Of a stretch of 64,000 nt of DNA, positions 3,218 to 25,568 are shown one piece after another. Origin of the DNA: Nitrospirota bacterium (GTDB lineage: Bacteria; Nitrospirota; UBA9217). The position numbers and the translations under genes were made by a program. The notes beneath the pieces were generated by a model, which worked only from the letters and a program-made list of their open reading frames with translations, had not been told where the DNA came from and did not search any database. Location of the stretch: contig CAWCKW010000012.1 of assembly GCA_963796285.1 (NCBI GenBank), positions 576,001 through 640,000 of the forward strand, read 5' to 3'. The first letter of the stretch is position 1. Each line of letters opens with the position of its first letter.

Positions 3218-3676
3218 ATGAGGCGCACTATTAAAAAACAGAAAGGTTTTACTCTTCTCGAACTGCTTATTGCCATGATGCTGTTGGCCATTGGCCTCTT
3301 GGCCACGGCCAGTATGCAGGGAACTGCTATACATGCAAATTCTTTGTCAAACAGGCTTTCCGTGGCAACCACCCTGGCCCAGCAGGTAGCGGAAGAGATC
3401 ACATCTCTCAGCAAGACCGATGTCCTGTTAAGAACAGCCTCGGGGCCGGATGTTCTCTATCCGACGCTGGACCCGGTTACCCCGTCAAGCGACCTTTTTG
3501 TGCCGGGTGCCGGCACATTCAGAGCGCGATACCAGATAATACCGAACGCTACAACTTTCAGTGGCGTATCCATTAAGGATACAACGCAGATACATGTAGA
3601 CGTTTATTTTGTTTCTCCGGATGGTGTAAATGTTCCAAAGATCGTGGCATTCACTACGTATAAAGAGGTCCAATAA
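3218..3676 (+). CDS. pilV: Type IV minor pilin PilV-like
   Basis: KG|FTLLE prepilin cleavage motif; first gene of V-W-X-Y1 order. Confidence 0.85.
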   Translation: MRRTIKKQKGFTLLELLIAMMLLAIGLLATASMQGTAIHANSLSNRLSVATTLAQQVAEEITSLSKTDVLLRTASGPDVLYPTLDPVTPSSDLFVPGAGTFRARYQIIPNATTFSGVSIKDTTQIHVDVYFVSPDGVNVPKIVAFTTYKEVQ

Positions 3677-4636
3677 ATGAAAAGGACGATTCTCATAAAA
3701 ATACAGCAAGGATTTACATTGATAGAATTGCTAATCGTTATGTTTATGCTCGGTTTGGTGACAATGGCCCTCTATTCTTTGTACACAACGCACCAGCGTT
3801 CCGCCTATGTTCAGGACGAAGTGGTGGAAGTCCAGCAAAACCTGAGGATCGCCATGGACAAAATAACCAATGACGTAAGGATGGCCGGATTATTTATTCC
3901 CTCGCCTGCCACAGCCACATTCAATGCTTTTCCGGTCCAAGCCACGGGTGATGGTGCCGGCGTAGCCAATTCCGATACGTTAACATTAAATTCTGAATCA
4001 TCATTTCATATTTTTGCTGCAATAACGCAGTCGGCGACACCAGTATTTAACGTTGCCTATACCGATTCCGTTGATGCTTTTAACACCGGAGATACAGTCA
4101 GGATCATAAGAGCAAATAGCAAAACGCAGCCTGGAGGGAATTGTACCTACTTGGTTGCGGGCACGCAAAGGATTCCCCCTCAAATCACACTGGGTCCTGA
4201 TACGACCAGCTGCAACAGTACACCCGCGGGGACCTTTCTGGCGAACGATGTTATCGTCAGGGTTGAGAGTAATGGGGTTTACCCGGTGACGATCACTTAT
4301 TGCCTGGGATCACAGACCGGTGTGGCTGGATGCGGCGGCGCAATAGCGACCTGCCCCTCAGGAGATTTATGCCTGATGAGGATTTTGAACATCGGGACGG
4401 CAAACGAGGTAAGCCAGTTGATCGCTCAAAATATGTCAGGGCTCCAGATCAGTTATCTTATGAACCTTCCTTTTAGCGTTGCGGAAGCCAGCTCACTGGT
4501 TAACCCAGTGGACGTGCTCAAAATGCGCGCGGTGAGGGTTACGCTCGTCGGAAGAACCGTGAAGACCACGGGCCTTTCGGACAACACGACAAAACAGAGG
4601 CAGTTGGAATCAGTCATCGGTTTCAAAGAGTTGTAG
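3677..4636 (+). CDS. pilW: Type IV minor pilin PilW-like
   Basis: QG|FTLIE; QQNLRIAMDKITNDVRMAG; C-terminal VRVTL. Confidence 0.85.
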   Translation: MKRTILIKIQQGFTLIELLIVMFMLGLVTMALYSLYTTHQRSAYVQDEVVEVQQNLRIAMDKITNDVRMAGLFIPSPATATFNAFPVQATGDGAGVANSDTLTLNSESSFHIFAAITQSATPVFNVAYTDSVDAFNTGDTVRIIRANSKTQPGGNCTYLVAGTQRIPPQITLGPDTTSCNSTPAGTFLANDVIVRVESNGVYPVTITYCLGSQTGVAGCGGAIATCPSGDLCLMRILNIGTANEVSQLIAQNMSGLQISYLMNLPFSVAEASSLVNPVDVLKMRAVRVTLVGRTVKTTGLSDNTTKQRQLESVIGFKEL

Positions 4637-4644
4637 GAGGCCAT

Positions 4645-5139
4645 ATGACACGAGCAGAACAGCCGAAGATGAGCAAAAAGGGAATTTATACACTAGCAGG
4701 GCATGCTGGAAACGAACGCGGCATGGCCTTGGTCATTGCCCTGGTAATGCTGGTTCTCCTTACCATGCTTGGCGTATGGGCGCTGGACACTTCCAGCACT
4801 GACCTCCGCATATCGGGAAATAGCAAGACCACCCAGGTCGCATACTACGCCGCAGAAGCCGGTGTCGGCTATGCTTCGAACAGGGCAGTACTTGAGAATT
4901 CGTATGTCGCGACCGGGGCCAGCGTAACGATTCCTGATCAATCGCTCGATAACAGCACCATTAAGATGAATTCGCGTTTTTTGATCAAAGCGCCTCTTCC
5001 GGCGGGTACTATGTATGAATCCAATTTGCAGGATATTGGACAAGAGAAGTTACCCGTCTATTTTACCTTGAATTCACAAGGTACGGCAGTGAATAATTCC
5101 ATAGTGAACATTGAAGCTTGCGTTGTGCTTATCCCCTGA
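4645..5139 (+). CDS. pilX: Type IV minor pilin PilX-like
   Basis: NERG|MALVIAL lacking Glu5; AYYAAEAG motif; AGGAGG RBS. Confidence 0.85.
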   Translation: MTRAEQPKMSKKGIYTLAGHAGNERGMALVIALVMLVLLTMLGVWALDTSSTDLRISGNSKTTQVAYYAAEAGVGYASNRAVLENSYVATGASVTIPDQSLDNSTIKMNSRFLIKAPLPAGTMYESNLQDIGQEKLPVYFTLNSQGTAVNNSIVNIEACVVLIP

Positions 5140-5202
5140 TTAACAAAGGCGCGGGGGTCTGTGCGGGAATAGTCAGTTGGTCTTTTTATGAAGGAGGATA
5201 TT

Positions 5203-5580
5203 ATGAAAAAAATATTGTTTACTTTTTCGACGGCTTTAGCGATATGCTTATTCATGGTTGTCGGGACCGGCATTGCACGGCAGGGAGGACCACGGGCGGG
5301 TTCTGCGTACGATCCCGCGGTTAAATATTCCGGTGATTACGATCCCGACCTGCTGTTTTTCAGAAACAGCTCTAAAGACGCGAACTGGCGTCGCATTCCA
5401 CCGCTCGATCTTCTTATAAAAGTGACCTGCTCTGACGCGCTGGAGTCGTTGAAGCGGGAGGGCATGTGGAAAGGGCATTTGAAAATCGACGGTTCTTGCG
5501 GTTCGACTGCCGAGCCTGCCGAATGGGCATTGGGCAACAGGCTGAACTATGATGAAGAACAGGGACAGGGTGCGCGTTAA
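5203..5580 (+). CDS. Small secreted protein resembling the Cys-containing insert of the PilY1 N-terminal domain
   Basis: AAGGAGG RBS, signal peptide MKKILF..; motifs YDPAVKY, C..L...G...G.L...GSC and LGNRLNY match PilY1 residues encoded at ~5805-6068. Confidence 0.75.
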   Translation: MKKILFTFSTALAICLFMVVGTGIARQGGPRAGSAYDPAVKYSGDYDPDLLFFRNSSKDANWRRIPPLDLLIKVTCSDALESLKREGMWKGHLKIDGSCGSTAEPAEWALGNRLNYDEEQGQGAR

Positions 5581-5609
5581 AGAATGGTGGTACATTAAAA
5601 GGAGGCTGT

Positions 5610-8600
5610 ATGCGAAAGTCACTCTTTATCATATTCATCGCAATATTGGCGGCAGTTGCCGGTCCTGGTGTCGCAACGGCCGGTCCGGATCGCTTCGCGG
5701 GTGATACGGTCATATATGGGGGGTCTGCTTCGGTCCTCGAGCCAAATGTCCTTATCATTATAGACGATTCCGGAAGCATGGGTGATTCAGTCCCCGGAGG
5801 CAGCTACGATTCCAGCGTGACATATACCGTAACCAACAATTGCTCGGGAAATTGCAGTACGAACGCGGTGTATAAAACGACTGACGGCGGAGCGACCGGC
5901 ACATTACTTAATGCGAGTGTTAATAATATAACCACATCGTGTCCTAGTGGTACTAACCCACGTTCAATCTTACAGACTTATGGAATTTACAGCGGCCGGA
6001 AATTGAGTTCCAGCGGTGCGTGTTCATCAGGAAACGCGGTCTATGTTTTGGGCAATTATATCAACTGGTATCACAGCACGACCGGATTTAAGTCGAAAAT
6101 ATCAATCGCGCGGGATGTGGTCAAGAACCTCGTGAATACCACGAACGGTGTAAAATTCGGGCTCATGACGTATCACTATGTCGGCGGCACCGGGCAGGGC
6201 GCGCAATTCCTGAATGTCTCGGTATCGGGCAGTAACTATATAACTACCGTGAAGGACATGGATTCTATGCATACCGGCTCGGTTACCAACAGGCAGGCCC
6301 TGATATCGTCAGTTGACACGCTTACTGATTTGAACGATACTCCGCTGGGGGAATCGCTTGTCGAGGCATTACGCTACTACCAGGGCAGTACAAGCGCTTT
6401 CGGAAATACCATCGGCCTGAGCGGAAGCCCGGCAACATACACCTCCCCGATCGATTTCGGTTGCCAGAAAAACTATATTGTTTTCGTGACCGATGGCATG
6501 TCGACGGCGGATAATAGCGCGAATCTGGATTTTGTAAACACATTATACGGCAGATATGACGGCGGCAACTGCAGTTATACTACGTGCGCCAACGATAGGA
6601 GCCACTCACTTGCCGGCGTCGCGCGCTATCTCTATGAAACCGATTTGAGGACCGATATTACCGGCACTCAGAACGTCGTCACCTACATGATCGGGTTCGG
6701 ACTCGGGGCGGACCAGGAAGCGATCGATCTCCTGACACTGACCGCGGACAGTAAGCATGGCCGCGGCGGTGATTTCGAAGCCGGGAACGAAGCGGAGTTA
6801 AGCCAGTCGCTCACGAAGATCATAGCGAGTATTTTTATCACAGACTCGTCGTTTGTCGCGCCGGTTGTGCCGGTGAGCCCCGAAAACAGGACGTTCAGCG
6901 GAAGCAGATTATATATGGGGTTCTTTAGACCGGAGGCAGGGGCGGTTTGGAGCGGCAACCTGAAGAAATACGGCCTCCAGGACCAACTTGCCTCGGGGAA
7001 TTTATGCGGCAATAATCAGGATGAGGTCCTTGACGTGACAGGACATTGTGCCACCTATGATGACGGCGCAGGCGACGTCAATATCAGTCAGGCCAGGCCT
7101 GATGCCCGGGACGGTGTAACGATTCCGGCAAATGTGGCGAGCGGAACTTTCCGGCCCGGTTCACAATCCTACTGGAGTACGGTCCCGGACGCTGGCGAAG
7201 TCAAGGAAGGCGGCGCGGGAACGCTGTTGTTGAACAGGACCATGGCCATCAGCTGTGCAACCTGCGACATATCGGGCGCTGTTTCGGACACGGGAAAACG
7301 CAAGATCTACACTTATCTGGGAATCAATACAGACCTGACTAACGCGAGTAATGCTTTCAGCACCTTGAATGTGGGACTTACTCCCGGGTTATTTGGCCTG
7401 CCCGGGCCGATCATACCAACGGGAACAACCACGGATGTAAAATTGCTCATCAATTTCATTCATGGATTTGACACATACGGCATTAACTCGGCAGGCACCA
7501 CTACGACTGATAGAGACTGGATCTTGGGCGATGTCCTGCATTCCAAACCCCTGTTCGTCAGCTACGCAACCTTCACTTTTACCACCACAAATGAAGCGGA
7601 CTGTACAAAGAACAAGAGCATCATCTTCTTCGGTTCCAACGACGGCATGCTGCATGCCTTCAAGGACTGCGACGGCAACGAGGCTTGGGCGTTTATTCCC
7701 CCGGAGGTGCTTCCTACGCTCCAGTATTTGCAAGGTCCGACCCACGCGTACTTCGCGGACAGCTCTGTTAAAGCCTATATATTTGATAGGAATAATGACG
7801 GCACGATCGATCCGTCCGATGGTGACACCGTGATTCTTATCTTTGGTCTCCGAAGGGGCAGTGGCAAAGACAGTCAGCCTACGCAAGGCCTCTATTACGC
7901 CCTTGATGTGTCAAACCCCACTCAGCCGAAGTTCATCTGGAGCATCGGAAACAATAAAACTCTGATCGGAACAACGAATACGATAACTGCGTTGTTCGGG
8001 GACATGGGCGAGAGCTGGAGCGAACCGAAGATAGGGAAAATAAAGCTGGGGACCACTGATAAGATCGTCGCCTTATTCGGCGGTGGATATGACAATTGCA
8101 ATGAAGACTCACGTTACGGTTCGACACAGACTTTCAGCTTAGGCGTCTGTGGCGCCGTGGCATCGAGCGACGGCGGACTGGACGTGAACGGTCAACCGAT
8201 CACGAGTGCCGGAGCAACACTGGTCACGAGTCTTAATAGCGCCCAATATAAGGGGAGGGCCTTCTACGTTGTTGAGATCGCTTCAAAAGTGAGTACGACG
8301 ACAGCATTCGATTACAGCAATAAAGGCAGCCTGATATGGAGCTATAATCAGGCCGGTAGTCCGCCGCTGGAGTTTTCAATGCTGAGTGAGCCGGCCGTAA
8401 TCGACAAGAACTACGACGGATATGCGGACACTGTTTATATGGGTGATACGGGCGGGAATATATGGAGGTTCGACATCTCGTCAACCAACAAGACCGATTG
8501 GAATGTGAAAAAGATATTCTCATCAAATCCGGGATTTACGGGATATCCACCCCCCGGCGTTGCCGACGGCACGAATGGGAGAAAAATACTTTACAATCCC

Positions 8601-9329
8601 TCCGTTGTAATCGATAAGAATTTCGTCCGGATATACTTCGGCACTGGAGACCGGGAACATCCTTTAAACAGGGCTGTTGTGGACAGGTTCTACGAAGTGA
8701 TTGACAAGGGGAATATTACGAGCGCCTTGACTGAGGTCAAATTGGTTGATGTTTCAACAGACTTGATACAACTGGGTACTGCTGCCCAGGTCGCTGATTT
8801 TGAAGGCAAGATTAGACAGGTGGAGGACAAGGATAATACAACCTATTATGGCTGGTATATTCGCATGGAAGGTTTTGAGCATTTAGGTTCGGATCAGGTT
8901 TTTTCCGCCGGAACACTGACCGTGACGCCCTTTCAAGGGGAAAAAGTTATCAGTAATCCCCGGGTCTTTAACGGCATAGTTTATTTCACGACCTTTATGC
9001 CGAATACCAATGTGGCTGTCGATCCCTGCAACCAGGGGAATACCGGTCAAAGTTTTCTTTGGGCGGTGAATCCTCAAAATGGGGGTTCTACCCTAAATTT
9101 AAATACTACCAATGATTCCACCGCTAATTTCAATGCACTGAAATGGAATGCATATGCATCAATGGGAAAATCTGGAAATGCGGTTTATCTAAGGACTGAC
9201 CGGGCTGGACATCTTGGCACTGGAATGGCGTCACCTCCGGGAGAGATCATGGGATGCAGTGGAAGCTTGTGTCCCTCAAGACCTGATCTGAGTGGACATA
9301 TATTGCAGATATACTGGCGACAGAAATGA
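5610..9329 (+). CDS. pilY1: PilY1/PilC type IV pilus tip adhesin with vWA domain and beta-propeller
   Basis: Signal peptide; MIDAS DDSGS..TPL..TDG; LGDVLHSKP, GSNDGMLHAF, EAWAFIP, GESWSEP, Ca-binding DKNYDGYAD, YFGTG. Confidence 0.93.
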   Translation: MRKSLFIIFIAILAAVAGPGVATAGPDRFAGDTVIYGGSASVLEPNVLIIIDDSGSMGDSVPGGSYDSSVTYTVTNNCSGNCSTNAVYKTTDGGATGTLLNASVNNITTSCPSGTNPRSILQTYGIYSGRKLSSSGACSSGNAVYVLGNYINWYHSTTGFKSKISIARDVVKNLVNTTNGVKFGLMTYHYVGGTGQGAQFLNVSVSGSNYITTVKDMDSMHTGSVTNRQALISSVDTLTDLNDTPLGESLVEALRYYQGSTSAFGNTIGLSGSPATYTSPIDFGCQKNYIVFVTDGMSTADNSANLDFVNTLYGRYDGGNCSYTTCANDRSHSLAGVARYLYETDLRTDITGTQNVVTYMIGFGLGADQEAIDLLTLTADSKHGRGGDFEAGNEAELSQSLTKIIASIFITDSSFVAPVVPVSPENRTFSGSRLYMGFFRPEAGAVWSGNLKKYGLQDQLASGNLCGNNQDEVLDVTGHCATYDDGAGDVNISQARPDARDGVTIPANVASGTFRPGSQSYWSTVPDAGEVKEGGAGTLLLNRTMAISCATCDISGAVSDTGKRKIYTYLGINTDLTNASNAFSTLNVGLTPGLFGLPGPIIPTGTTTDVKLLINFIHGFDTYGINSAGTTTTDRDWILGDVLHSKPLFVSYATFTFTTTNEADCTKNKSIIFFGSNDGMLHAFKDCDGNEAWAFIPPEVLPTLQYLQGPTHAYFADSSVKAYIFDRNNDGTIDPSDGDTVILIFGLRRGSGKDSQPTQGLYYALDVSNPTQPKFIWSIGNNKTLIGTTNTITALFGDMGESWSEPKIGKIKLGTTDKIVALFGGGYDNCNEDSRYGSTQTFSLGVCGAVASSDGGLDVNGQPITSAGATLVTSLNSAQYKGRAFYVVEIASKVSTTTAFDYSNKGSLIWSYNQAGSPPLEFSMLSEPAVIDKNYDGYADTVYMGDTGGNIWRFDISSTNKTDWNVKKIFSSNPGFTGYPPPGVADGTNGRKILYNPSVVIDKNFVRIYFGTGDREHPLNRAVVDRFYEVIDKGNITSALTEVKLVDVSTDLIQLGTAAQVADFEGKIRQVEDKDNTTYYGWYIRMEGFEHLGSDQVFSAGTLTVTPFQGEKVISNPRVFNGIVYFTTFMPNTNVAVDPCNQGNTGQSFLWAVNPQNGGSTLNLNTTNDSTANFNALKWNAYASMGKSGNAVYLRTDRAGHLGTGMASPPGEIMGCSGSLCPSRPDLSGHILQIYWRQK

Positions 9330-9386
9330 AGAGGCACTAAAAAGCGTCGCAAGGGGAACTAGGTAATACGAGGGGCCAGATAAACA

Positions 9387-10328
9387 ATGACAAAAAAAAT
9401 AGAAGTGTTCTGTCTCATGATCTTGATGATTAGTTTCTTTGCCTGCACGAAAGAGGGGAAAGCGCCTGGTCCCGGCACTTCCCCTCAACAGGGGGGAAAC
9501 GCAACGCATGCATCCAGCGAGATCGGCCGGCAATCGCGAGGGAGTACGATGGTTGGAATCATGCCGGAAAATCCGACAGTGATGACGGATATCCAGGCGG
9601 TTTATTCCGGAGTCGGTCCGGCAGCATATCAATGGAAGAAAAATTCTCTGGTAATTCCCGGACAAACAACCTACAAACTCCTGAAAAAATATTTCTTGAG
9701 GGGCGATACGATTACGGTCATTGTGACTTCAGGCGGTATCGAAGAATCGGCATCCGTCGTCATCGGCAACAGCGTGCCGAATGTTGTATCAGTCCCCTTT
9801 AGTCCGCAATACATACATGCGGGAGTCGATATCACGGTTAAGCCCGTCGGGTTTGATCCGGATGGTGATGAGGTCGGGTTCCGTTATGTATGGTCGATAA
9901 ACGGCAAGGAACTCTTAGGAGACTCACCGGTTCTGAGCGGCAACGACTTCAAGAAAGGCGATACCGTAATGCTCAAGGTAATCCCCTATGATAGAGAAGG
10001 CGATGGGGCGCCTTTTTTAACTATGGGAATGATTATTCCCAATGCTTCACCCCGTATTATATCGGTTCCCATTGAGGAGTTTCTGGGACGTGAATACACA
10101 TATCGCGTTGTAGCTGAGGACCCCGATGGCGACCCTCTTTCCTATTCTTTTGCTTCCGCGCCACAGGGAATGACTATCGACGCCAAAACGGGCGTCATTA
10201 ACTGGCGGATCGACGATAAGCCGGAGGGCGCTTATGCCGTTGAAATCGTTGCGCAGGACCCTGACGGCATCAAGGCCACACAGAAATATACTCTCTCTGT
10301 AACGCACACGGAAGGAGGCGGGAAATGA
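9387..10328 (+). CDS. Lipoprotein with tandem Ig-like repeats
   Basis: Lipobox FFAC; repeated DPDGD..Y.W and APQGMTIDAKTGVINW Ig motifs. Confidence 0.8.
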   Translation: MTKKIEVFCLMILMISFFACTKEGKAPGPGTSPQQGGNATHASSEIGRQSRGSTMVGIMPENPTVMTDIQAVYSGVGPAAYQWKKNSLVIPGQTTYKLLKKYFLRGDTITVIVTSGGIEESASVVIGNSVPNVVSVPFSPQYIHAGVDITVKPVGFDPDGDEVGFRYVWSINGKELLGDSPVLSGNDFKKGDTVMLKVIPYDREGDGAPFLTMGMIIPNASPRIISVPIEEFLGREYTYRVVAEDPDGDPLSYSFASAPQGMTIDAKTGVINWRIDDKPEGAYAVEIVAQDPDGIKATQKYTLSVTHTEGGGK

Positions 10329-10810
10329 TGCTCCGTGGCTCGACACTACGCACTATAAAGGGTTTTACCGCGATTGAGATGATAATTGTACTTGCTATTA
10401 TCAGCGTTTTATCCGCCATGGCTTTGCCGTCTTACCTTCAGTGGCGCAGAAGTATCGAAGCCAGAGAAACGGCAAGAGATTTCGTGAACATACTCAGGAA
10501 GGCGAAAAGCGAGGCACTGAGATCGAACCTGGAGCAGGAAGTGGGGTTTAACTCAGCCTTGCGACAATACGGCGGCAAAAGGCAGGGAAATCAGGCATAC
10601 AATTCCACAGCCTGGTCAGCGGCAGCGAACTGGACGAACATCAAGCCCGAAGTGACTTCTACCCCGACCATTAGTATTCGATTTCATCCCAATGGAACAT
10701 CCACAAATAGCTCAGTATTCTCCAGTGCCACCTTAACAGTAAAGGACACTGCTGGAACACGACAATTCGTGGTCTCCGTGTCTAATACGGGCATAATCTC
10801 TACAAGGTGA
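10325..10810 (+). CDS. fimT: FimT/FimU (GspH-like) minor pilin
   Basis: KG|FTAIE, ALPSY, AKSEA, IRFHPNG, VSNTG. Confidence 0.8.
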   Translation: MMLRGSTLRTIKGFTAIEMIIVLAIISVLSAMALPSYLQWRRSIEARETARDFVNILRKAKSEALRSNLEQEVGFNSALRQYGGKRQGNQAYNSTAWSAAANWTNIKPEVTSTPTISIRFHPNGTSTNSSVFSSATLTVKDTAGTRQFVVSVSNTGIISTR

Positions 10811-11118
10811 TCCGGCAGCAGCGTTCCCGTCAGTTATCATTCTCCTTTTTGCGGAATATCCCTGGTATTTGATCAGTTGATCAGCTTTCATCGTGTCGAC
10901 GTAAGTACGACTCTTCCGAGCCGAATGTCTCATAAGTCATTTAATGTACAATCTCAAGTGCATCTTTCCCATCTACCTTCACAGTAAGTACGGCCATCAA
11001 AGTTTCCTGGTTTTATATGAAAAACAAATTATAGCTGGAAATCGCAATAACGTATTAATCCTCCTGCGGTATAGAGAGAGCATCGAGAATCTCGAAATCC
11101 GACAATCAGGAGGCTTCA

Positions 11119-11610
11119 ATGGATCACAAGGATCAGCTGTCGACGTGCCCTGTTCGGGCTGAAAGAGGTTTTACGCTCACAGAATTAATCGTTGTGTTGG
11201 CCTTGCTCACCGTCCTCTCCGCTATTTCTATACCGCCCTTTGTTCAATGGATAAGCAACGCCAAATACCGCACATCTGCTCGAAATATTCTGTCCATATT
11301 GCGGGAAACAAAAAGTAAGGCCATAACCTCCAACCTGGAGCATCGGGTCGAGTTTGAATCTGAAAACCGGAGATATCGGGTTAAACGCGGAAATAGATCG
11401 AGTAACAGCAACGACTGGAGCACGGTGATATATGACTGGACCATCTTTCCTACGGGTGTAAATATGAATGCAAATGTTGCAACTATACATCTCAACCCGA
11501 ACGGCACAACCAGCGGCGGTACGATTGCGATCCAGAGTGCAATTAGTAAGACAATATTCGAAGTTCGAATCGCCAGCACTGGCAGGATTCGAATCTCGAA
11601 GGTATTATAA
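11119..11610 (+). CDS. Second FimT/FimU-like minor pilin
   Basis: AGGAGG RBS; RG|FTLTE; paralogous to 10325-10810 (SNLE..V.F, RYR..GN..NS..WS, PNGT, STGRI). Confidence 0.8.
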   Translation: MDHKDQLSTCPVRAERGFTLTELIVVLALLTVLSAISIPPFVQWISNAKYRTSARNILSILRETKSKAITSNLEHRVEFESENRRYRVKRGNRSSNSNDWSTVIYDWTIFPTGVNMNANVATIHLNPNGTTSGGTIAIQSAISKTIFEVRIASTGRIRISKVL

Positions 11611-13009: not shown

Positions 13010-13038
13010 TTGACACTCTTAACTATACGGTTTATCCT
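13010..13038 (+). promoter_or_regulatory. Sigma70 promoter of maf (predicted leaderless transcript)
   Basis: TTGACA-17-TATCCT, ATG 7 nt after the -10. Confidence 0.65.
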
Positions 13039-13045
13039 GAGGAAC

Positions 13046-13621
13046 ATGAAAACGCCCATCATTCTCGCGTCAAACTCGCCTCGCCGCAAAGAGCTGCTGC
13101 GTCAGCTCGGTCTGGATTTCAGCATCGATCCGGCCGATGTGGACGAGCGCGTTCTGCCTAATGAAGTGCCGGAAGGATATGCTGTGCGGGTAGCGCTCGA
13201 CAAGGCGCGTCTCGCGGCCGCGCGGGCAGTCTCCGGCATTGTTATTGCCGCAGATACTATTGTTGTCGTTGATGACGAAATACTCGGTAAGCCGGCAGAT
13301 GCGAGTGATGCCGAACGAATGCTCAAAATGCTCTCCGGAAAAGCACATCGCGTGATCACCGGCCTTGCGGTCATGGATGTTGCTACGGGAAAGACCGTTA
13401 CCCGAACCTCGATCACCCGTGTCTGGTTCCGTCGCCTTGCGCAGCAGGAGATAGTTTCCTATATTGCCACCGGCGAACCACTCGACAAGGCCGGCGCTTA
13501 CGGCATCCAGGAACGAGGTGCTTTGCTGGTTGACAAGATAGATGGGTGCTATTTCAACGTCGTCGGACTACCGCTCTCACTACTCGGGAAACTGCTCCTT
13601 GATTTTGGCATTAATATGTAG
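13046..13621 (+). CDS. maf: Maf family nucleoside triphosphate pyrophosphatase
   Basis: IILASNSPRRKELL, AADTIV, ILGKP, DKAGAYGIQ, NVVGLP. Confidence 0.95.
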   Translation: MKTPIILASNSPRRKELLRQLGLDFSIDPADVDERVLPNEVPEGYAVRVALDKARLAAARAVSGIVIAADTIVVVDDEILGKPADASDAERMLKMLSGKAHRVITGLAVMDVATGKTVTRTSITRVWFRRLAQQEIVSYIATGEPLDKAGAYGIQERGALLVDKIDGCYFNVVGLPLSLLGKLLLDFGINM

Positions 13622-13692
13622 GCGTCGCGATATAACAGCACCGACCAGTTGCATTAAAATGCACTTCATCCTTTTTTATTACACGTCAGGCC

Positions 13693-13721
13693 TTGACAGC
13701 CGATCAATATCATACTAAAAT
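13693..13721 (+). promoter_or_regulatory. Sigma70 promoter of the LuxR regulator
   Basis: TTGACA-17-TAAAAT. Confidence 0.65.
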
Positions 13722-13758
13722 ACTAACATATCCAACCGATACGGAAACGGGGGTTGTT

Positions 13759-14403
13759 ATGTCTATAATTCGTATAATGATCGTTGCAAACGACCCAAAT
13801 CAGATGCAAGCGCTTAACGCTGCACTTGACCAGCAGGATACAATGGGTATTATTTCAATTGTATCCTCGAGTGAAACCGCTATTAAGCAGCTGACAGCCT
13901 CTCCCGATATCATGCTCTTAAATCCCGAGGTGCTGAAAAAACATACTCTCTCGCGATTTATACACGCGATCCATACAAAGTCGTCCCGGACAAGGATCAT
14001 TCATCTTCTGCAGCGAACTCCTCCCGATGAAGATCTTATATATGACATCAAGGCGGGTGTCAGGGGATACATCAAGACGACCGATTCGCCTGCGATCATG
14101 ATAAAAGCAATTCAAGCTGTATTCAATGGAGAAATTTGGGCTGAACGCAGGATCCTGGAAAAGGCGATTTCAAATCCCGTGTTGTTGCCCGAGATACTTA
14201 ACGTGAACGTCCCGGGGCTTGCACCGCTTACGAGCCGGGAGAAGGAAATGCTCACCCTGGTCATGAAGGGTGAATCGAATAAGGAGATCGCGGCCAGGAG
14301 CAGTATCAGCGAGCGAACAGTAAAGACCCATCTGTATCGTGTATATCGGAAACTGAATGTTAAGAGCAGGACCAAAGCAATTGCATTATTCTCGCATTCG
14401 TAA
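13759..14403 (+). CDS. NarL/LuxR-family regulator with degenerate receiver domain (CsgD/VpsT-like)
   Basis: LTSREKEML...GESNKEIA....ISERTVKTHLYRVYRKL HTH; receiver reads IVAND and DIMLLN (phospho-Asp is Asn). Confidence 0.9.
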   Translation: MSIIRIMIVANDPNQMQALNAALDQQDTMGIISIVSSSETAIKQLTASPDIMLLNPEVLKKHTLSRFIHAIHTKSSRTRIIHLLQRTPPDEDLIYDIKAGVRGYIKTTDSPAIMIKAIQAVFNGEIWAERRILEKAISNPVLLPEILNVNVPGLAPLTSREKEMLTLVMKGESNKEIAARSSISERTVKTHLYRVYRKLNVKSRTKAIALFSHS

Positions 14404-14423
14404 CATTATTGGTTTCATCATTA

Positions 14424-14469
14424 AATACGACTTTAGGTCTATTGACATACAATCTTAAACTGCTATCCT
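14424..14469 (+). promoter_or_regulatory. 7-2-7 NarL/LuxR-type operator abutting a sigma70 promoter
   Basis: TACGACT-TT-AGGTCTA (14426-14441), then TTGACA (14442-47), 16-nt spacer ending in TGC, TATCCT (14464-69). Confidence 0.6.
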
Positions 14470-14475
14470 TTAACC

Positions 14476-14704
14476 AAATACTGCGCTGTGCCATTGCTCT
14501 CAGGTGAACAGAAGCTGGTACATTGGCGAGAAACTTCTATCCCCCCATGAATAAAGTTTAAGCCGACCAGAATCTATCACCAGGACGCAATAGTAAACAA
14601 CCAGTTAAAATAATTAGGTTTTGCAGCGCAGTAATGAAGGCGTCTTGATGACAAGTTGAGAGGAGAGATCCTTTCACAAAAAACATCGGGGCGCCTTGTT
14701 TTTT
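14476..14704 (+). ncRNA. Candidate structured non-coding RNA of unknown family
   Basis: Own promoter; nested helices with G-U pairs that work only on the + strand; final hairpin plus T6; no credible ORF. Confidence 0.6.
14637..14704 (+). terminator. Long hairpin with GAGA tetraloop followed by T-tract
   Basis: AAGGCGTCTTGATG / CATCGGGGCGCCTT and TGAGAGGA-GAGA-TCCTTTCA, then GTTTTTT. Confidence 0.6.
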
Positions 14705-14814
14705 CCCCCTTTCAACAGAGCTGCACCAGCACTCCGATTCAATCTTCAACCAATCTAGTTGCGATTCCCACTCAAGCCTTGACGAGGCTGCAGAATGACT
14801 GTATCATGCGACCC

Positions 14815-16059
14815 ATGTCTGCCGTGCTTTTCACTGCCTATCTTTTCATCCTGGGGACCGGCTATTGGCTCAAGTACCTGAACCTTGCGTATTTAAAAGT
14901 TCATGGTAAAACCGTGCCTCCTGAATTTAAGGGTGTGGTCGGTCCGGCGCAACTGGAAAAAATATCCGATTATACATTGGAGAACAGCCGTGTCGGTTAT
15001 TTTGAATCAATCCTCGGTAACATCCTCACCATCCTCTTCCTTTTTGCCGGACTGCTCGGCGTCTACGATCGTTGGATACTTTCGCTAACCGGCTCGCTGC
15101 TCTGGGGAGGTTTGCTTTTTTCCCTCATCATGCTGTATGCTGAAACGCTGATCGATATTCCCTTCAGCCTCTACAGAAACTTCAAGATCGAAAATCGCTA
15201 TGGATTCAATACCATGACCATGCGTCTCTGGTTTATTGATCTGATAAAGTCAATCACGATCTCAACGGTCATTGGTTCTGTAGTCGTTCTCTCGGCGCTC
15301 GCGATCATCCAGGCCAGCCCCTCCTGGTGGTGGCTCTGGGTATGGATGTTTCTCTTGGTCTTCGGTATTTTCGTCATGTATATTTCGCCTTATGTCATTG
15401 AACCGCTCTTTTTTAAATTTGAACCGGTGAAAGCGGAGGGATTGGAAGAGAAGGTGCGCGTACTGATGGAACGCGCCGGTCTTAAGGTCGGCCGCGTGTT
15501 CCAGGTGGATGCGTCCCGCAGAAGCCGCCATTCGAATGCATACTTCACCGGCATCGGCAGGGTAAAGCGGATCGTATTGTTTGATACCCTGTTAGATCAA
15601 ATGACACACGAGGAGATCCTCGCGGTCCTTGCGCACGAGGTAGGCCATTGGAAGATGCGGCATGTGCTGAAGCGGATCGTCCTGACGGAGGCAATGGCGT
15701 TTTGCGGGTTGTTCCTGGCATTTCATCTTCTCTCGTGGGACGGGCTGCCGGGCATGATCGGACTCGCCAATGCATCGTTCTTCGCAAGGGTCGTTATCCT
15801 GGGATTTCTAAGCTCATTGGCCATGTTCCCGCTTACCCCGCTCTTTTCCTCTCTCTCGCGGAGAGACGAGCGCGAGGCGGACCAGTATGCTTCGGATCTT
15901 ACCGGTCGTCCTGATGCCATGGCGTCCGCCCTGGTGAAGCTTTCGCGGGAGAATCTTGCCAATCTGCACCCTCATCCGCTCTATGCGAAGTTCCACTACT
16001 CTCATCCGCCGGTTGTGGAGAGGATACGGAAGTTGAAGGCAGGAGCTACTAGCCAGTAG
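14815..16059 (+). CDS. M48 family (Ste24-like) membrane zinc metallopeptidase
   Basis: NAYFTG, RIVLFDTL, AHEVGH (HExxH), EREAD, YSHPP; start set at ATG 14815 behind TTGACG-17-TATCAT. Confidence 0.93.
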   Translation: MSAVLFTAYLFILGTGYWLKYLNLAYLKVHGKTVPPEFKGVVGPAQLEKISDYTLENSRVGYFESILGNILTILFLFAGLLGVYDRWILSLTGSLLWGGLLFSLIMLYAETLIDIPFSLYRNFKIENRYGFNTMTMRLWFIDLIKSITISTVIGSVVVLSALAIIQASPSWWWLWVWMFLLVFGIFVMYISPYVIEPLFFKFEPVKAEGLEEKVRVLMERAGLKVGRVFQVDASRRSRHSNAYFTGIGRVKRIVLFDTLLDQMTHEEILAVLAHEVGHWKMRHVLKRIVLTEAMAFCGLFLAFHLLSWDGLPGMIGLANASFFARVVILGFLSSLAMFPLTPLFSSLSRRDEREADQYASDLTGRPDAMASALVKLSRENLANLHPHPLYAKFHYSHPPVVERIRKLKAGATSQ

Positions 16060-16135
16060 TCAGGAGTCAGGGAAAATCCATTTTTGCCGCCTATCCGTTC
16101 GTCTTGCTGCCTTCTGTTTCTATCTCCCGGTCCTT
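16044..16135. repeat. Period-7 repeat (AGCCAGT AGTCAGG AGTCAGG) with a weak pyrimidine-rich return arm
   Basis: Tandem heptamers at 16044-16071; the M48 stop codon lies inside them. Confidence 0.5.
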
Positions 16136-16188
16136 GTCCCTACACTTTCCCATTGACCACCATCGTCATGTTGTGCTATTTTTGGACC

Positions 16189-16440
16189 ATGAAGAATCCC
16201 GCCTCTACTGCCCGCCTTGAACAGAAAGTGAAGCGTCTCTCAACGCTTATCGAAGTGAATGCTCTTAGCAGCTCGACTCTCAATCTTGACCAGAACCTTG
16301 AGAACATGATGGCAATCTCCAAGCAGGCGATAGATGCGGAAAGAAGAATATTGATGAAGTGGTGGTGCATGTCAGGGACGCGGGGAAGAACGTGAAAGAC
16401 GCTTCCGAAGAGATAAAGAAAGCCCGTGGAAGCTGCTTAG
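16189..16440 (+). pseudogene. Chimeric remnant: GAF-sensor N-terminus joined to an unrelated coiled-coil C-terminus
   Basis: RLSTLIEVNALSSSTLNLDQNLENMM..SKQAIDAE is a GAF-entry helix; another frame then reads KNIDEVVVHVRDAGKNVKDASEEIKKA.. Confidence 0.5.
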
Positions 16441-16569
16441 GAAGCCTTGATGTAGTAGTGAAGAGAACGTGAATAGATATTACAAAAATAGAGACTGGAT
16501 ATCGGGACAGTGATTGAACCTCAATCACTTAATCTCTTTTTTCTATTATGTCATTCTAAAGGAGTCTGA

Positions 16570-17827
16570 ATGTCGATCCAGGCAATTAAAGGTGTGAAGG
16601 ATGTGCTGCCGTCGGACATGCCGGTATGGCAATACCTCGAGGCGACGGCGCGCAGGCTGTTTGAGGACTTTGGGTTTGCCGAGATACGGGTCCCGGTTTT
16701 CGAATATACGGAACTGTTTGCCCGGAGCATCGGTACGTCAACGGACATTGTTGAGAAGGAAATGTATACCTTTGAGGACCGCGACGGGAGAAAGATCACG
16801 CTCAGGCCGGAGGGGACCGCGGGCGTGGTGCGCGCGTTCGTCGAGCACAAACTGTATGCCGATTCCCAGCTGACGAAACTGTATTATCTGGGCCCCATGT
16901 TCCGGCATGAGCGGCCGCAGAAAGGGCCGTTATCGCCAGTTCTACCAGATCGGCGTTGAAGCGATCGGACTCGACCATCCTCATGTCGATATCGAGGTCC
17001 TGGCGATGCTGCACGCTCTTTTCGCCAGACTCGGCATTACGGGCCTGAGCCTTCAGATCAATTCCCTCGGCGACAACGAGTGCCGGGGAGCATACCGGGA
17101 CGCGCTCAAACAGTATTTATCGACAAAACTTCCGACCTTGTGCGCGGACTGCCGGCGGAGGTACGAGACCAACCCGCTCCGCGTCCTGGACTGCAAGGTG
17201 GATGCGGACAAGTTCATGGACTCGCCGGTCATGCTCGATTATCTCTGCGATCCCTGCAAGTCGCATTTCGAGACCGTAGAACAGGGGCTGCGCAAGCTCG
17301 GGATCCCTTTTGAGGTCAACAAGCGCCTGGTGCGCGGACTGGACTATTATACCCGCACGACATTCGAGCTGGTCATGGGGCATATGGGCGCGCAGAATAC
17401 CGTGGCCGCGGGCGGCAGGTATGACGGTCTGGTCAAGGAGATCGGCGGTCCGGCAACTCCTGGGATCGGTTTTGCGCTCGGCGTCGAGCGGGCGATATCG
17501 CTCATGGATACCAGCAACGTGGTGTTTCCCCGGCCCGCGCTCTTCATTGCCGCGCTTGGTCCGGATGCCGTGGCGCTGGTGCTTCCGATCGTCCATCATC
17601 TCAAATCGTCAGGGATCCCGGTTGAGACGGATTATACGGGAGCAAGCCTCAAGAGCCAGATGAAGAAGGCGGACAAATCAGGCGCCGGCCACACGCTGAT
17701 CATCGGGGAACAGGAAATGAAGAACGGGATAGCGATCCTCCGCAATATGCAGAACAAGGAACAGGCCGAGATCGCTCTCGTGAACATAGAAGAGGAACTG
17801 AAAAACAGAATGGCACGCCGAGCATGA
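16570..17827 (+). CDS. hisS: Histidine--tRNA ligase (one indel at ~16926)
   Basis: [56 protein letters not shown]. Confidence 0.96.
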
Positions 17828-22528: not shown

Positions 22529-23602
22529 TTAATCCTGGTGAAGAGAATATATCTCATCAAACAATGGGGCAATATCACGAAAGGCCTTCAATACCTCAGG
22601 GTCGAAGTGCTCCGGCATGGTTCTCCCGTCGCCTTGAGTAATGATCTTACAGGTCGTTTCATGGTCAAAGCCGGCCTTATACGGTCTCTTGCTGCGCAGG
22701 GCATCATACTGATCAACCAGCATGACTATTCTTCCCTCCATCGGGATCTGTTCTCCCTTAAGTCCTCTTGGATATCCTTTGCCGTCCCATCGCTCGTGGT
22801 GAGTAAGCGCTATGGATGCCGCAATCTGAATGCCGGGATAGGTCGATCCAGCCAGCATCTTTGCACCGATGGCAGAGTGTGTTTTCATGATCACAAATTC
22901 CTCGGAAGTGAGGGCCGCAGGTTTCAGAAGAATGCTGTCAGCGATGCCGATCTTGCCGAGGTCGTGCATAGGGCTAGCAAACGATATGGTCTCGACAAAG
23001 GATGACGGCATATCCATTGCCTCAGCGACCTTGTTTGAGTAGAGGCCGATCCTCGCGATGTGGAGGCCGGTGTCCGTGTCGCGGTACTCGGCAACGGCCG
23101 TCAATCGCTGGATGACCTCGTTGCTCATTTTTCTGACCATCGTCAGAGCGTCCGCCAGCTCCTGCGTCCGTATCCGTACCGTGTCTTCCAGCAGGCGCTT
23201 GTAATTCTTCTCCATTTTGAGGAAGCTGGTGTATTTGACCGCCTTTTCCACCGAGTGCACGAGATAGCTGGGATTATACGGCTTCGTGATAAAATCAAAT
23301 GCCCCGAGTTTGATCGCGTCTACGGCTATATCCAGTTCCGCGAACGCGGTCATCAGGATCACAGGGAGCTGTTGATCATAGGCGTGAATTTTTTGGAGGA
23401 GCTCGATACCGGTGATCTGAGGCATCTTGATGTCGGTCAAGACCACGTCGAAGGCGATCTTCTCGATCATGGCCATGGCATCAATCGAATGTTGACACGC
23501 GTACACTGTATAGCTGTACTCTTTTAACAAAGTTGAAATGGATTCAAGCACATAAGCGTCGTCATCGACAATGAGCAGCGTGTTATTTACCTTGTCGTCC
23601 AT
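22529..23602 (-). CDS. Response regulator with HD-GYP cyclic-dinucleotide phosphodiesterase domain
   Basis: REC (VDDD..TDIKMP..KP) plus [29 protein letters not shown]. Confidence 0.93.
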
Positions 23603-23805
23603 CTATTTATGACCTTCCTGGAGAAGTGCGCGGCCGCCTCTCCAAATTCCAATCTTGGAATAGTATAGCGGAAATATTCAACAAATGCCAATTCTTCTCA
23701 TTATAGCAAATATTCTCTTCCCTATGGCGGTAAATATTTGGTATAATCTGCGCAACTACGGTTTCATGAATCCCTCTATTAAATGAACCGGACAAGGAGC
23801 ATACC

Positions 23806-25568
23806 ATGGCGGTTGGGGATGTAAAAAAAAGGATCGGTGAGATGCTTGTTGCCGGAGGGCTGATCAAGGAAGAGCAGCTTATGCGGGCGCTTGAAGAACA
23901 GAAAAAGGGGGGGGGAAGGTAGGCGAAATTCTCGTGGACCTGGGATTCATCAACGAGCATATGATGGCAACATTCCTCGCCCGGCAGCTTCATCTCCCGT
24001 ACATAGAAATCGATAAACAGCTGGTAGACACCGACAGTGTAAGGATGATTCCAGCTGAAATGGCGAGACGCATCACGGCAATTCCGTTGTACAGAGACAA
24101 GGAAGCGCTGGTCGTGGCCATGGCGGATCCGCTGAATATCTTCGGCCTTGACGACATGCAGAAGGCAGCAGGCAAAGAGATCCGGAAGGTCGTTGCCACA
24201 CGGAGCGACATCCAAAAAGCTATTTCCAGCTATTATGGCATGGGGCATACCATCGATGCGGCGACCATGGATTTTGCCGGCGAGACGGGCACCGCTTTAG
24301 CAGAAGCTGTGGAGATGACCGGCGTCACGTCAGAGGACGCGCCGGTGGTCAAGCTGGTGAGTATGCTGATTGCGCAGGCCATCATCGACCGTGCCAGCGA
24401 CATCCACATCGACCCGGAAGGGAAATCCATCAAGGTGCGTTACCGGATCGACGGTGTGCTGATCGAGGTAAGGACCCTGCCGCGGGAGTTGCATGCACCA
24501 ATCGTCTCCCGCATAAAGATCATGGCAAATATGGACATCTCGGAAAGGCGCGTACCGCAGGACGGACGTTTCCAGGCACGGATCACGCATACCGAAACCG
24601 GCCCGGTCGTGACCGCCGTGTTTCGCGAGCGGAGCGTCCTGCGTATTGTTGATGAAGGCTCGACGGTGGACATCCGTGTTTCGACCCTGCCGGTCATTCA
24701 GGGAGAAACGGTTGTAATGCGCATCCTCGACCGCTCACGTATTATCCTGACCCTCGAGGGACTGAATTTCTCCGCGGATATGCTCGATAGGTACCGCAGA
24801 CTCATCACAAAGCCTTATGGCATGATCCTGGTCACGGGACCGACGGGAAGCGGGAAAACCACGACGCTCTATGCAAGTCTCAACACCATCGACCGGAAGG
24901 CGAACAATCTGGTTACGATCGAGGACCCTGTCGAGTATCAGATCATGGGGGTGAACCAGGTCCAGGTCAATGCCAAGGCGGGTGTGACTTTCGCCAGCGG
25001 CCTGCGTTCCATTCTGCGGCAGGACCCTGATATCATCATGGTGGGTGAGATCCGCGACCGGGAGACGGCCGAGATCGCCATCCATGCGGCGCTTACCGGG
25101 CATCTGGTCTTCGCGACGCTCCATACAAATGACGCGGCCGGCGCCGCTACCCGGCTCATTGATATGGGCATTGAACCGTTCCTTATTGCTTCTTCAACGC
25201 TCGCGATTCTCGGGCAGCGTCTTGCGCGGAAGATCTGCGACCGTTGTAAGAAACCCTATCCCGCGACCCCTGATCTGCTCAAGAGCCTCGGCATTGCGAC
25301 CGGCAATGTGACCTTTTACCGGGGTGAAGGGTGTCCTGCGTGTAAGAAAACAGGGTACCAGGGCAGGGTCGGTCTCTATGAGTTGATGGATATGACTGAA
25401 GCGGTCAGGGAACTGATCATTTCCAAGGCATCAAGCTCTGCCATAAAGACCACGGCCTCGCAGTCAGGATTCAAGACCCTGCGCCAGGAAGGCCTGGTCA
25501 AAGCCGCAGCCGGATTGACCACGGTGGAAGAGGTGCTCAGGGTTACGCAAGAGGCGGAAGGGATCTAG
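23806..25568 (+). CDS. GspE/PilB-family assembly ATPase with N-terminal MshEN domain (frameshift in G9 run at 23907-23915)
   Basis: AAGGAG RBS; RIGEMLVAGGLI...QL.RALEEQ; ASDIHI, PQDGR, GPTGSGKT, TIEDPVE, LRQDPD, CxxC pairs. Confidence 0.9.

Follow-up and report, generated by a model that had tools for sequence, protein, structure and literature searches.

A previously uncatalogued structured small RNA gene adjoining an atypical NarL/LuxR-family regulator gene in uncultured Nitrospirota

Several regulator genes of Proteobacteria have as their direct neighbour the gene of a small RNA (sRNA) that they control, as in OxyR/OxyS, GcvA/GcvB, SgrR/SgrS, LuxO/Qrr1, CbrB/CrcZ and PxrR/Pxr. Among the sRNAs with C-rich loops, 6C of the Actinobacteria (RF01066; M. 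tuberculosis 6C/B11) is about 90 nt long and forms two C-rich hairpins. It is reported to bind several mRNAs through C-rich loops (PMC6486639), and the C-rich or anti-Shine-Dalgarno loops of RsaE/RoxS, cuckoo (CcsR) and SprX-type sRNAs are thought to pair with G-rich ribosome-binding regions (PMC4615179, PMC4005690).

The locus described here lies in a window of 64,000 nt, this being the whole stretch of DNA that was analysed, from a bacterium of the Nitrospirota. Members of this phylum abound in soils, sediments and wetlands, and the majority have never been cultured; to our knowledge, their RNA regulators are nearly unknown. Table 1 of a 2022 review gives three annotated sRNAs for the Nitrospirae (PMC9029176), and literature searches at the level of listings returned no description of an sRNA such as the one found here. 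Positions 14442-14704 of the window (+ strand) hold a real and previously uncatalogued gene for a small RNA, about 230 bases in length. The coordinates of its features are collected in the table.

Like the regulator-sRNA pairs, the locus combines conserved adjacency to a regulator gene with an sRNA that has its own promoter and a conserved block upstream of it. Here, however, the regulator is an atypical NarL/LuxR-family protein with Asn at its phospho-acceptor position, and its control over the RNA is one that we infer. The tandem orientation is that of cbrB-crcZ, but the promoter is of the sigma-70 and not of the sigma-54 type. With 6C the RNA shares its salient sequence feature, a conserved C-run exposed in a hairpin loop. 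It has one such loop, borne by a rod of about 105 nt that is part of a three-way structure about 160 nt in size, it gives no RF01066 match, and its host belongs to a different phylum and possesses Hfq. Compared with RsaE/RoxS, CcsR and SprX it is larger, has a single motif, shows no similarity by sequence or model, and lacks an enrichment of predicted pairing with ribosome-binding sites. By these comparisons the RNA resembles both the C-rich-loop sRNAs and the regulator-sRNA pairs, is a member of none of them, and constitutes a new RNA family.

Features of the sRNA locus and its immediate neighbours, with positions in the window
Feature	Position	Strand	Basis
Atypical NarL/LuxR-family regulator gene, 214 aa	13759-14403	+	Pfam GerE 6.5e-22; directly upstream of the RNA
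Conserved block AAATACGACTTTAG, candidate activator site or UP element	14423-14436	+	6-19 nt upstream of the -35 hexamer
Sigma-70-type promoter of the sRNA (TTGACA, TGc, TATCCT)	14442-14447, 14461-14463, 14464-14469	+	promoter scan; 32/32 loci
sRNA transcript, predicted, ~229 nt	14476-14704	+	start predicted from position of the -10 element, 3' end from that of the U tract
P1 closing helix, 5' strand UACUGCGCUGU	14479-14489	+	pairs with 14623-14633; 11 bp, MFE fold
P2, long imperfect arm with apical loop	14490-14594	+	MFE helices
Apical loop CUAUCCCCCCAUGAAUA, C6 at 14541-14546, candidate seed	14537-14553	+	family consensus, unpaired probability
Conserved 3'-strand block AGAAUCUAUCACCAGGACGC; family Gag..a.CA.Ca.Gaugc	14569-14588	+	family alignment
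P3 side hairpin	14599-14620	+	MFE fold; outside model R1
P1 closing helix, 3' strand GCAGCGCAGUA	14623-14633	+	MFE fold, family covariation
Intrinsic terminator: 14-bp outer and 8-bp inner stem, GAGA loop, then UUGUUUUUU	14637-14704	+	MFE fold
M48 peptidase promoter TTGACG-17-TATCAT, ATG 14815	14779-14817	+	promoter scan; ATG 7 nt after the -10 element

The sRNA promoter has a 16-nt spacer, a TG two bases before the -10 element and 10/12 matches in the promoter scan, and TTGAC with TGn-TAnnn[T/A] is present in all of the 32 RNA-bearing loci described below. Folding of 14470-14706 (+) gave -84.1 kcal/mol as compared with -52.1 +/- 4.6 kcal/mol for shuffled sequences (z = -6.96), and none of 200 shuffles was as low; the minus strand reached -74.3 kcal/mol (z = -3.99). 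The fold and the ubiquitous promoter bear out the original prediction, made from the letters of this DNA, that the + strand encodes an unannotated structured RNA equipped with a promoter and a terminator. The promoter, helices, C6 loop, side hairpin and terminator that it had listed all lie where it had placed them. It had also claimed at least five G-U pairs fitting only the + strand; the MFE fold has nine among its 77 pairs.

In that fold the P2 arm is built of the helices AUUGC/GCAAU, GGUGA/UCACC, CUGGU/ACCAG, UGGC/GCCG and AAACUU/AAGUUU, and its internal loops and bulges are all short. Part of the block AGAAUCUAUCACCAGGACGC is an internal loop in the family model, but in the present copy the MFE fold pairs it. 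The place of P3 is occupied in homologues by a hairpin of variable sequence. The outer stem of the terminator pairs 14637-14650 with 14684-14697 and is followed by T6 at 14699-14704. A small protein encoded by the RNA was considered and rejected: the longest ATG frames span 18-77 aa in 34 distinct homologues and no frame is common to them.

A search with the regulator yielded 40 orthologous loci and four distant loci from Acidobacteriota. With the window counted, promoter, RNA and terminator directly follow the regulator gene in 32 of 41 orthologous loci. A covariance model, R1, was built with Infernal from seven of these 32. It matches the window at 14479-14703 (61.5 bits, E = 1.9e-17) and recovers 30 of the 32 RNA-bearing loci at E <= 1e-3, the two most diverged homologues scoring more weakly (L045, E = 0.004; L042, E = 0.29), and it matches none of the nine RNA-less regulator loci and none of the four Acidobacteriota loci.

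Searched with R1, 35 of 64 genomes of the Nitrospirota family, in 14 of 19 genera, contain the RNA, a count obtained with stricter filters that missed at least one genome positive by other evidence (G020). There is one copy per genome in 34 of the 35 positive genomes and two in the other. Among eight sampled relatives from the same genus, three carry the RNA. An even sample of the phylum added 13 positives among 27 further genomes of the same family, and R1 found the RNA in 0 of 123 genomes from 21 other Nitrospirota families. Within the genomes searched, the RNA family is confined to one family of uncultured Nitrospirota. One MAG (G081) holds two regulator-plus-RNA modules, L022 and L051, on different contigs (255 and 159 bits).

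Covariation at orthologous loci had been proposed as a check on the prediction and was found by two routes. A MAFFT alignment of 31 sequences analysed with RNAalifold recovered only P1 and the terminator, with compensatory changes at 13 of 22 pairs. The model-fitted alignment (35 matches, 34 distinct rows), which leans towards R1, has standard pairs in 90.0% of 1563 cells versus 33.9-41.8% when slid by 1-3 columns. Changes on both sides occur at 38 of 50 pairs versus 10-17 in the slid controls, the covariation score is 0.381 versus 0.044-0.068, and 0/500 shuffles reach any of the observed measures. The margin is large, and P1 and the terminator are supported independently by the MAFFT alignment.

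By element, P1 has both-side changes at 13 of 14 pairs with 94% of cells paired, and helices 2-7 of the model (P2) are 75-91% paired with both-side changes at 21 of 24 pairs. The outer stem of the terminator is 97.5% paired and nearly invariant (G-C in 33-34/34 rows); its exchanges, U-A/U-G and C-G/U-G/U-A, are compatible with the + strand alone. Over the whole family alignment there are 137 G-U/U-G cells as against 47 A-C/C-A cells, an excess which identifies the + strand as the one transcribed into the structure.

Sequence is conserved along with pairing. The strands of P1 read aCUGcGCUGUu and aaCAGCgCaG, with the core CUGCGCUG/CAGCGCAG, the top of P2 is GCGGC/GCCGC, and the terminator stem is AGGCGUCuCGAU / caUCGgGaCGCCUU. 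The apical loop follows the consensus aCUuC...cCCCCc, also written ACUUCUUCCCCCCC. A run of at least six C at nt 50-65 is present in 30 of 34 distinct homologues, with a mean predicted unpaired probability of 0.81 versus 0.39 for all nucleotides. The C-rich loop, noted in the original prediction, is the best conserved unpaired element of the RNA.

The set of 4227 covariance models of Rfam 15 was compared with the window, with 14300-14900 and with homologous loci. The window gave no match at gathering score except one tRNA, 14300-14900 none at E up to 10, and 12 homologous loci none at E up to 0.1. The original prediction had likewise matched the RNA to none of SRP RNA, tmRNA, RNase P, canonical 6S and riboswitches. 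In its size class, rod-like shape and closing helix the RNA is like 6S RNA (RF00013), and a divergent 6S-like RNA binding RNA polymerase might be considered. The genome, however, has a canonical 6S gene of its own elsewhere (G000:C12:1524125-1524304, 103.5 bits), the locus gave no RF00013 match even at E up to 10, and the MFE fold has no large central bubble. Identity with 6S RNA was rejected because of the canonical gene and the missing match, and we regard a 6S-like role as extremely unlikely.

The long imperfect inverted repeat could also be that of a repeat or mobile-element relic, such as a REP or MITE-like palindrome. Many dispersed copies had been named in advance as an observation that would tell against an RNA gene, but BLAST found the 392-nt intergenic region in a single copy in its own genome, the other seven hits being 15-22 nt long with E >= 4, and a repeat element was rejected on this ground. 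The one copy in nearly every positive genome, the fixed synteny, the compensatory changes and the G-U asymmetry likewise oppose this origin, and its probability is practically negligible.

Of 30 loci that R1 detected on its own, 29 have the regulator gene directly upstream, and the 30th is cut by the end of a contig; the tie between RNA and regulator that had been proposed is thus confirmed from the side of the RNA. In the window, M48 Pfam domains lie downstream of the RNA, and maf lies upstream of the regulator at 13010-13621. Among the model-found loci, M48 is downstream in 26/30 and maf upstream in 27/30.

The frequent M48 neighbour, and the terminator placed between RNA and peptidase gene, would suit a cis-acting leader or attenuator, riboswitch-like, of the peptidase gene. 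Against this, the peptidase has its own conserved promoter, and the layout of promoter and ATG recurs in most orthologous loci whether or not the RNA is present; by its sequence, the peptidase mRNA is likely leaderless. Four of the 30 loci have no M48 match downstream (another gene follows in G008 and G024, and a third locus is short), and no Rfam riboswitch matched. The adjacency to the regulator and the separate promoter of the peptidase together mean that the RNA travels with the regulator and is not a peptidase leader, in agreement with the original prediction. A leader function seems very unlikely to us. The segment 14476-14704 (+) is a gene in its own right, present once in the genome and encoding a structured sRNA.

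Further features of the window were noted around the locus. A type IV minor-pilin cluster (N_methyl, PilX_N, PilY1, GspH) occupies 3218-11610, upstream of the RNA gene, and a receiver-HD-GYP protein and an MshE-like ATPase are encoded downstream at 22532-25568; in several relatives a similar distance separates the MshE-like ATPase gene from the RNA gene. Within 16084-17827, a hisS-like ORF (16907-17827) enters the Pfam profile at its position 104, and the N-terminal part of hisS may lie in another frame as the result of a frameshift or an assembly error.

In L014, L015 and L019, RNA-less loci of close relatives, the spacer between the regulator and the peptidase gene behind it is much shorter. 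The shortened spacer of L015 (2180-2260) has kept a TTGACA promoter and a remnant, TTCCCCCC. The short spacers and this remnant point to loss of the RNA body by deletion.

The regulator has the receiver domain and the GerE helix-turn-helix of NarL/FixJ response regulators, and its residues 4-208 gave full-length profile matches to the structures of VraR (5hev, 9.3e-21), DesR and NarL. At the phospho-acceptor position, the end of beta-3, Asn stands in place of Asp (PDIMLLNPE in this genome). Among 41 orthologues the position is Asn in most, Asp in five and Ser, Gly, Thr or Gln in a few, and the helix-turn-helix is invariant in all 41. Nine of these 41 loci are without the RNA and retain the regulator with the helix-turn-helix unchanged; the regulator hence cannot serve the RNA alone. 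The orthologues also share an invariant W-A-x-R-R, which we take to lie at roughly the position of the c-di-GMP motif of VpsT. VpsT is among the structure matches of the regulator (1.3e-14), and a search of the short region against solved structures did not recover VpsT itself.

Feedback of the RNA on the regulator mRNA received no support from the duplex scan described below, where the regulator start region paired with the loop at -11.6 kcal/mol and ranked 757th of 3694. A GGGGG Shine-Dalgarno sequence precedes the regulator in 9/31 RNA-bearing versus 0/9 RNA-less loci, a difference which is only a lead because these loci are related.

The four Acidobacteriota loci (L053-L056, about 2230-2330) share a different element, some 75 nt long and almost without variation, that carries a terminator and is located behind a distant LuxR-type regulator (29% identical). 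Rfam gave no credible match to this element, the sole one (22 bits vs a gathering score of 48) being attributable to chance. It may represent a second regulator-plus-sRNA pair.

Upstream of the sRNA promoter, conservation extends over about 25 bp, 6-31 nt from the -35 hexamer, with the family consensus tGCAa.TcCA.aAAATac.ACTTT.G....ATTGACa in 32 loci. The block at 14423-14436 (AAATRCRACTTTnG) carries 1.0-2.0 bits at most positions. A LuxR-type 7-2-7 operator had been predicted here, and the box TACGACT-TT-AGGTCTA is indeed present at 14426-14441, with 5/7 positions complementary in the window. Its left arm and an A-rich 5' extension are conserved across the family, but the right arm (0.44-0.66 bits per position) and the dyad are not, the complementarity of the arms averaging 3.4/7 (range 1-6) over the 32 loci. 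A conserved left arm beside an unconserved right arm makes the block an asymmetric site. It may serve as an activator site, as an UP element or as both, and, being A/T-rich, it could be an UP element in part.

In a regulon search AAATRCRACTT was met at eight sites of the genome, of which just the one at this locus adjoins such a promoter, and no conserved counterpart of the block precedes the regulator's own promoter. The latter, CCTTGACA-N17-CTAAAAT within 13650-13721, is itself conserved across the family. In the same genus, an inverted repeat of the type TTGCAT-N4-ATGCAC lies about 35 nt upstream of its -35 element, and the block that precedes the sRNA promoter likewise contains TGCRA words.

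Parts of the region are contained in 20 listed public sequencing runs, two of which are on record as RNA libraries (soil metatranscriptomes). These two gave contigs of 167 and 211 nt at a depth of 31-35, covering 14483-14645 and 14483-14683; the contigs that reach 14683 continue for nine further letters, and their variants are those of a close relative (G004). A 171-nt contig with five differences covers 14522-14671. The evidence thus consists of assembled contigs of a close relative, free of strand and end information, and the two runs, being of the same size, may be one data set. In both runs (X19, X20) 14202-14473 and 14712-15100 are not covered, which serves as context only; a comparison DNA run covers all 30 bins. 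The contigs from the RNA libraries agree with the span of the predicted transcript and give a hint of expression. A diverged homologue reached a depth of 353 in a further run (X21), which was left out of the expression evidence because it is flagged as probably DNA.

These data also bear on the possibility that the RNA is simply the structured 3' UTR of the regulator transcript, which it would stabilise and terminate without having any separate function. RNA and regulator are always adjacent, and the scan found no terminator-like site on the + strand in 13500-15000, and none between the regulator stop at 14403 and the RNA, so that regulator transcripts should read into the RNA. Set against this are the strong promoter of the RNA, conserved in every RNA-bearing locus, the RNA-library contigs, which cover the RNA and not the regulator gene, and the regulator genes that stand without the RNA in 9/41 loci. 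Moreover, a covarying structure of about 160 nt with a conserved loop exceeds the needs of a terminator. We consider the 3' UTR explanation improbable.

As to function, the reading we prefer, with moderate confidence, is that of a trans-acting base-pairing sRNA under the control of the adjacent regulator. The accessible C-rich loop would be the seed, a candidate for pairing with G-rich stretches of mRNAs, and Hfq, which is encoded in the genome (PF17209, 109.2 bits), would probably assist. The regulator, lacking the usual phospho-acceptor Asp, would control transcription of the RNA through the block 5' of the -35 element. Like trans-encoded sRNAs of the Hfq type, the RNA is transcribed from a promoter of its own, as predicted, and its Rho-independent terminator ends in a U tail. 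Outside the window, at G000:C12:1204362-1204745, there is a second Hfq-like frame (65 bits) with an in-frame TAG, followed by a weak Hfq match.

Putative targets were sought by computing duplex energies of the loop with 3694 start regions taken from home-made gene calls. The pairing with G-rich ribosome-binding sites that the original prediction had put forward gained no support here, since loop duplexes were no more frequent than those of shuffled loops: there were 274, 112 and 50 at <= -16, -18 and -20 kcal/mol, and six shuffled loops gave 132-387, 31-143 and 12-43 at the same cut-offs. A 14-nt complement of the consensus loop was also searched in 64 genomes with at most one mismatch, and one-mismatch matches were about as common as for the reversed control; the exact complement was found at the RNA gene itself and once in G085, a genome that scored no model hit. 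The frames picked up by a cruder scan over every ORF start were for the most part spurious. A G-run before the MshE-like ATPase was discarded as a target, since it lies inside conserved coding sequence and the start call was wrong. The target scan also met a long G-rich tract with runs of 8-15 G outside the window (G000:C12:1807200-1807260).

The absence of a target signal in the duplex scans would equally be expected if the RNA acted by binding a protein, as a sequestering or scaffold RNA that works by titration and not by pairing with mRNAs. An RNA-binding protein would then recognise the C-rich loop and the conserved ACCAnCA / GAUGC block as displayed on the conserved rod. The large covarying scaffold accords with this, as does helix sequence conserved beyond the needs of pairing, namely the G-C pairs of the terminator and the P1 core; a long covarying scaffold with near-invariant P1 and terminator sequence is unusual for a plain pairing sRNA and fits a protein partner as well. 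On the other hand, the gene context suggests no partner protein besides the regulator, and pairing sRNAs such as 6C typically expose one accessible C-rich loop (PMC6486639). No CsrA gene was found in the genome, which is 96% complete, so that a CsrA sponge was rejected, and arrays of repeated GGA or A-rich motifs are absent from the RNA. Protein binding is in our view a less likely but serious alternative, and the one with the greatest weight.

A closed RNA-protein circuit would combine elements of both. The regulator would activate the RNA gene, and the invariant near-palindromic helices, either the P1 core (CUGCGCUG/CAGCGCAG) or the terminator stem, would bind the regulator or a partner, so that the RNA would replace the missing phosphorylation input, the C-loop serving as a second, mRNA-directed arm. 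We offer this as a speculative model with a rather slim chance of being correct.

For the Nitrospirota, the locus supplies a new RNA family that is well supported and for which a covariance model is ready for use, a defined promoter, a candidate cognate regulator and a clear candidate seed. Promoter, upstream block and regulator can be tested in a heterologous host, and the family lends itself to annotation in metagenomes and to deposition in Rfam. The locus would open up a novel kind of mechanism solely if the RNA-protein reading were true.
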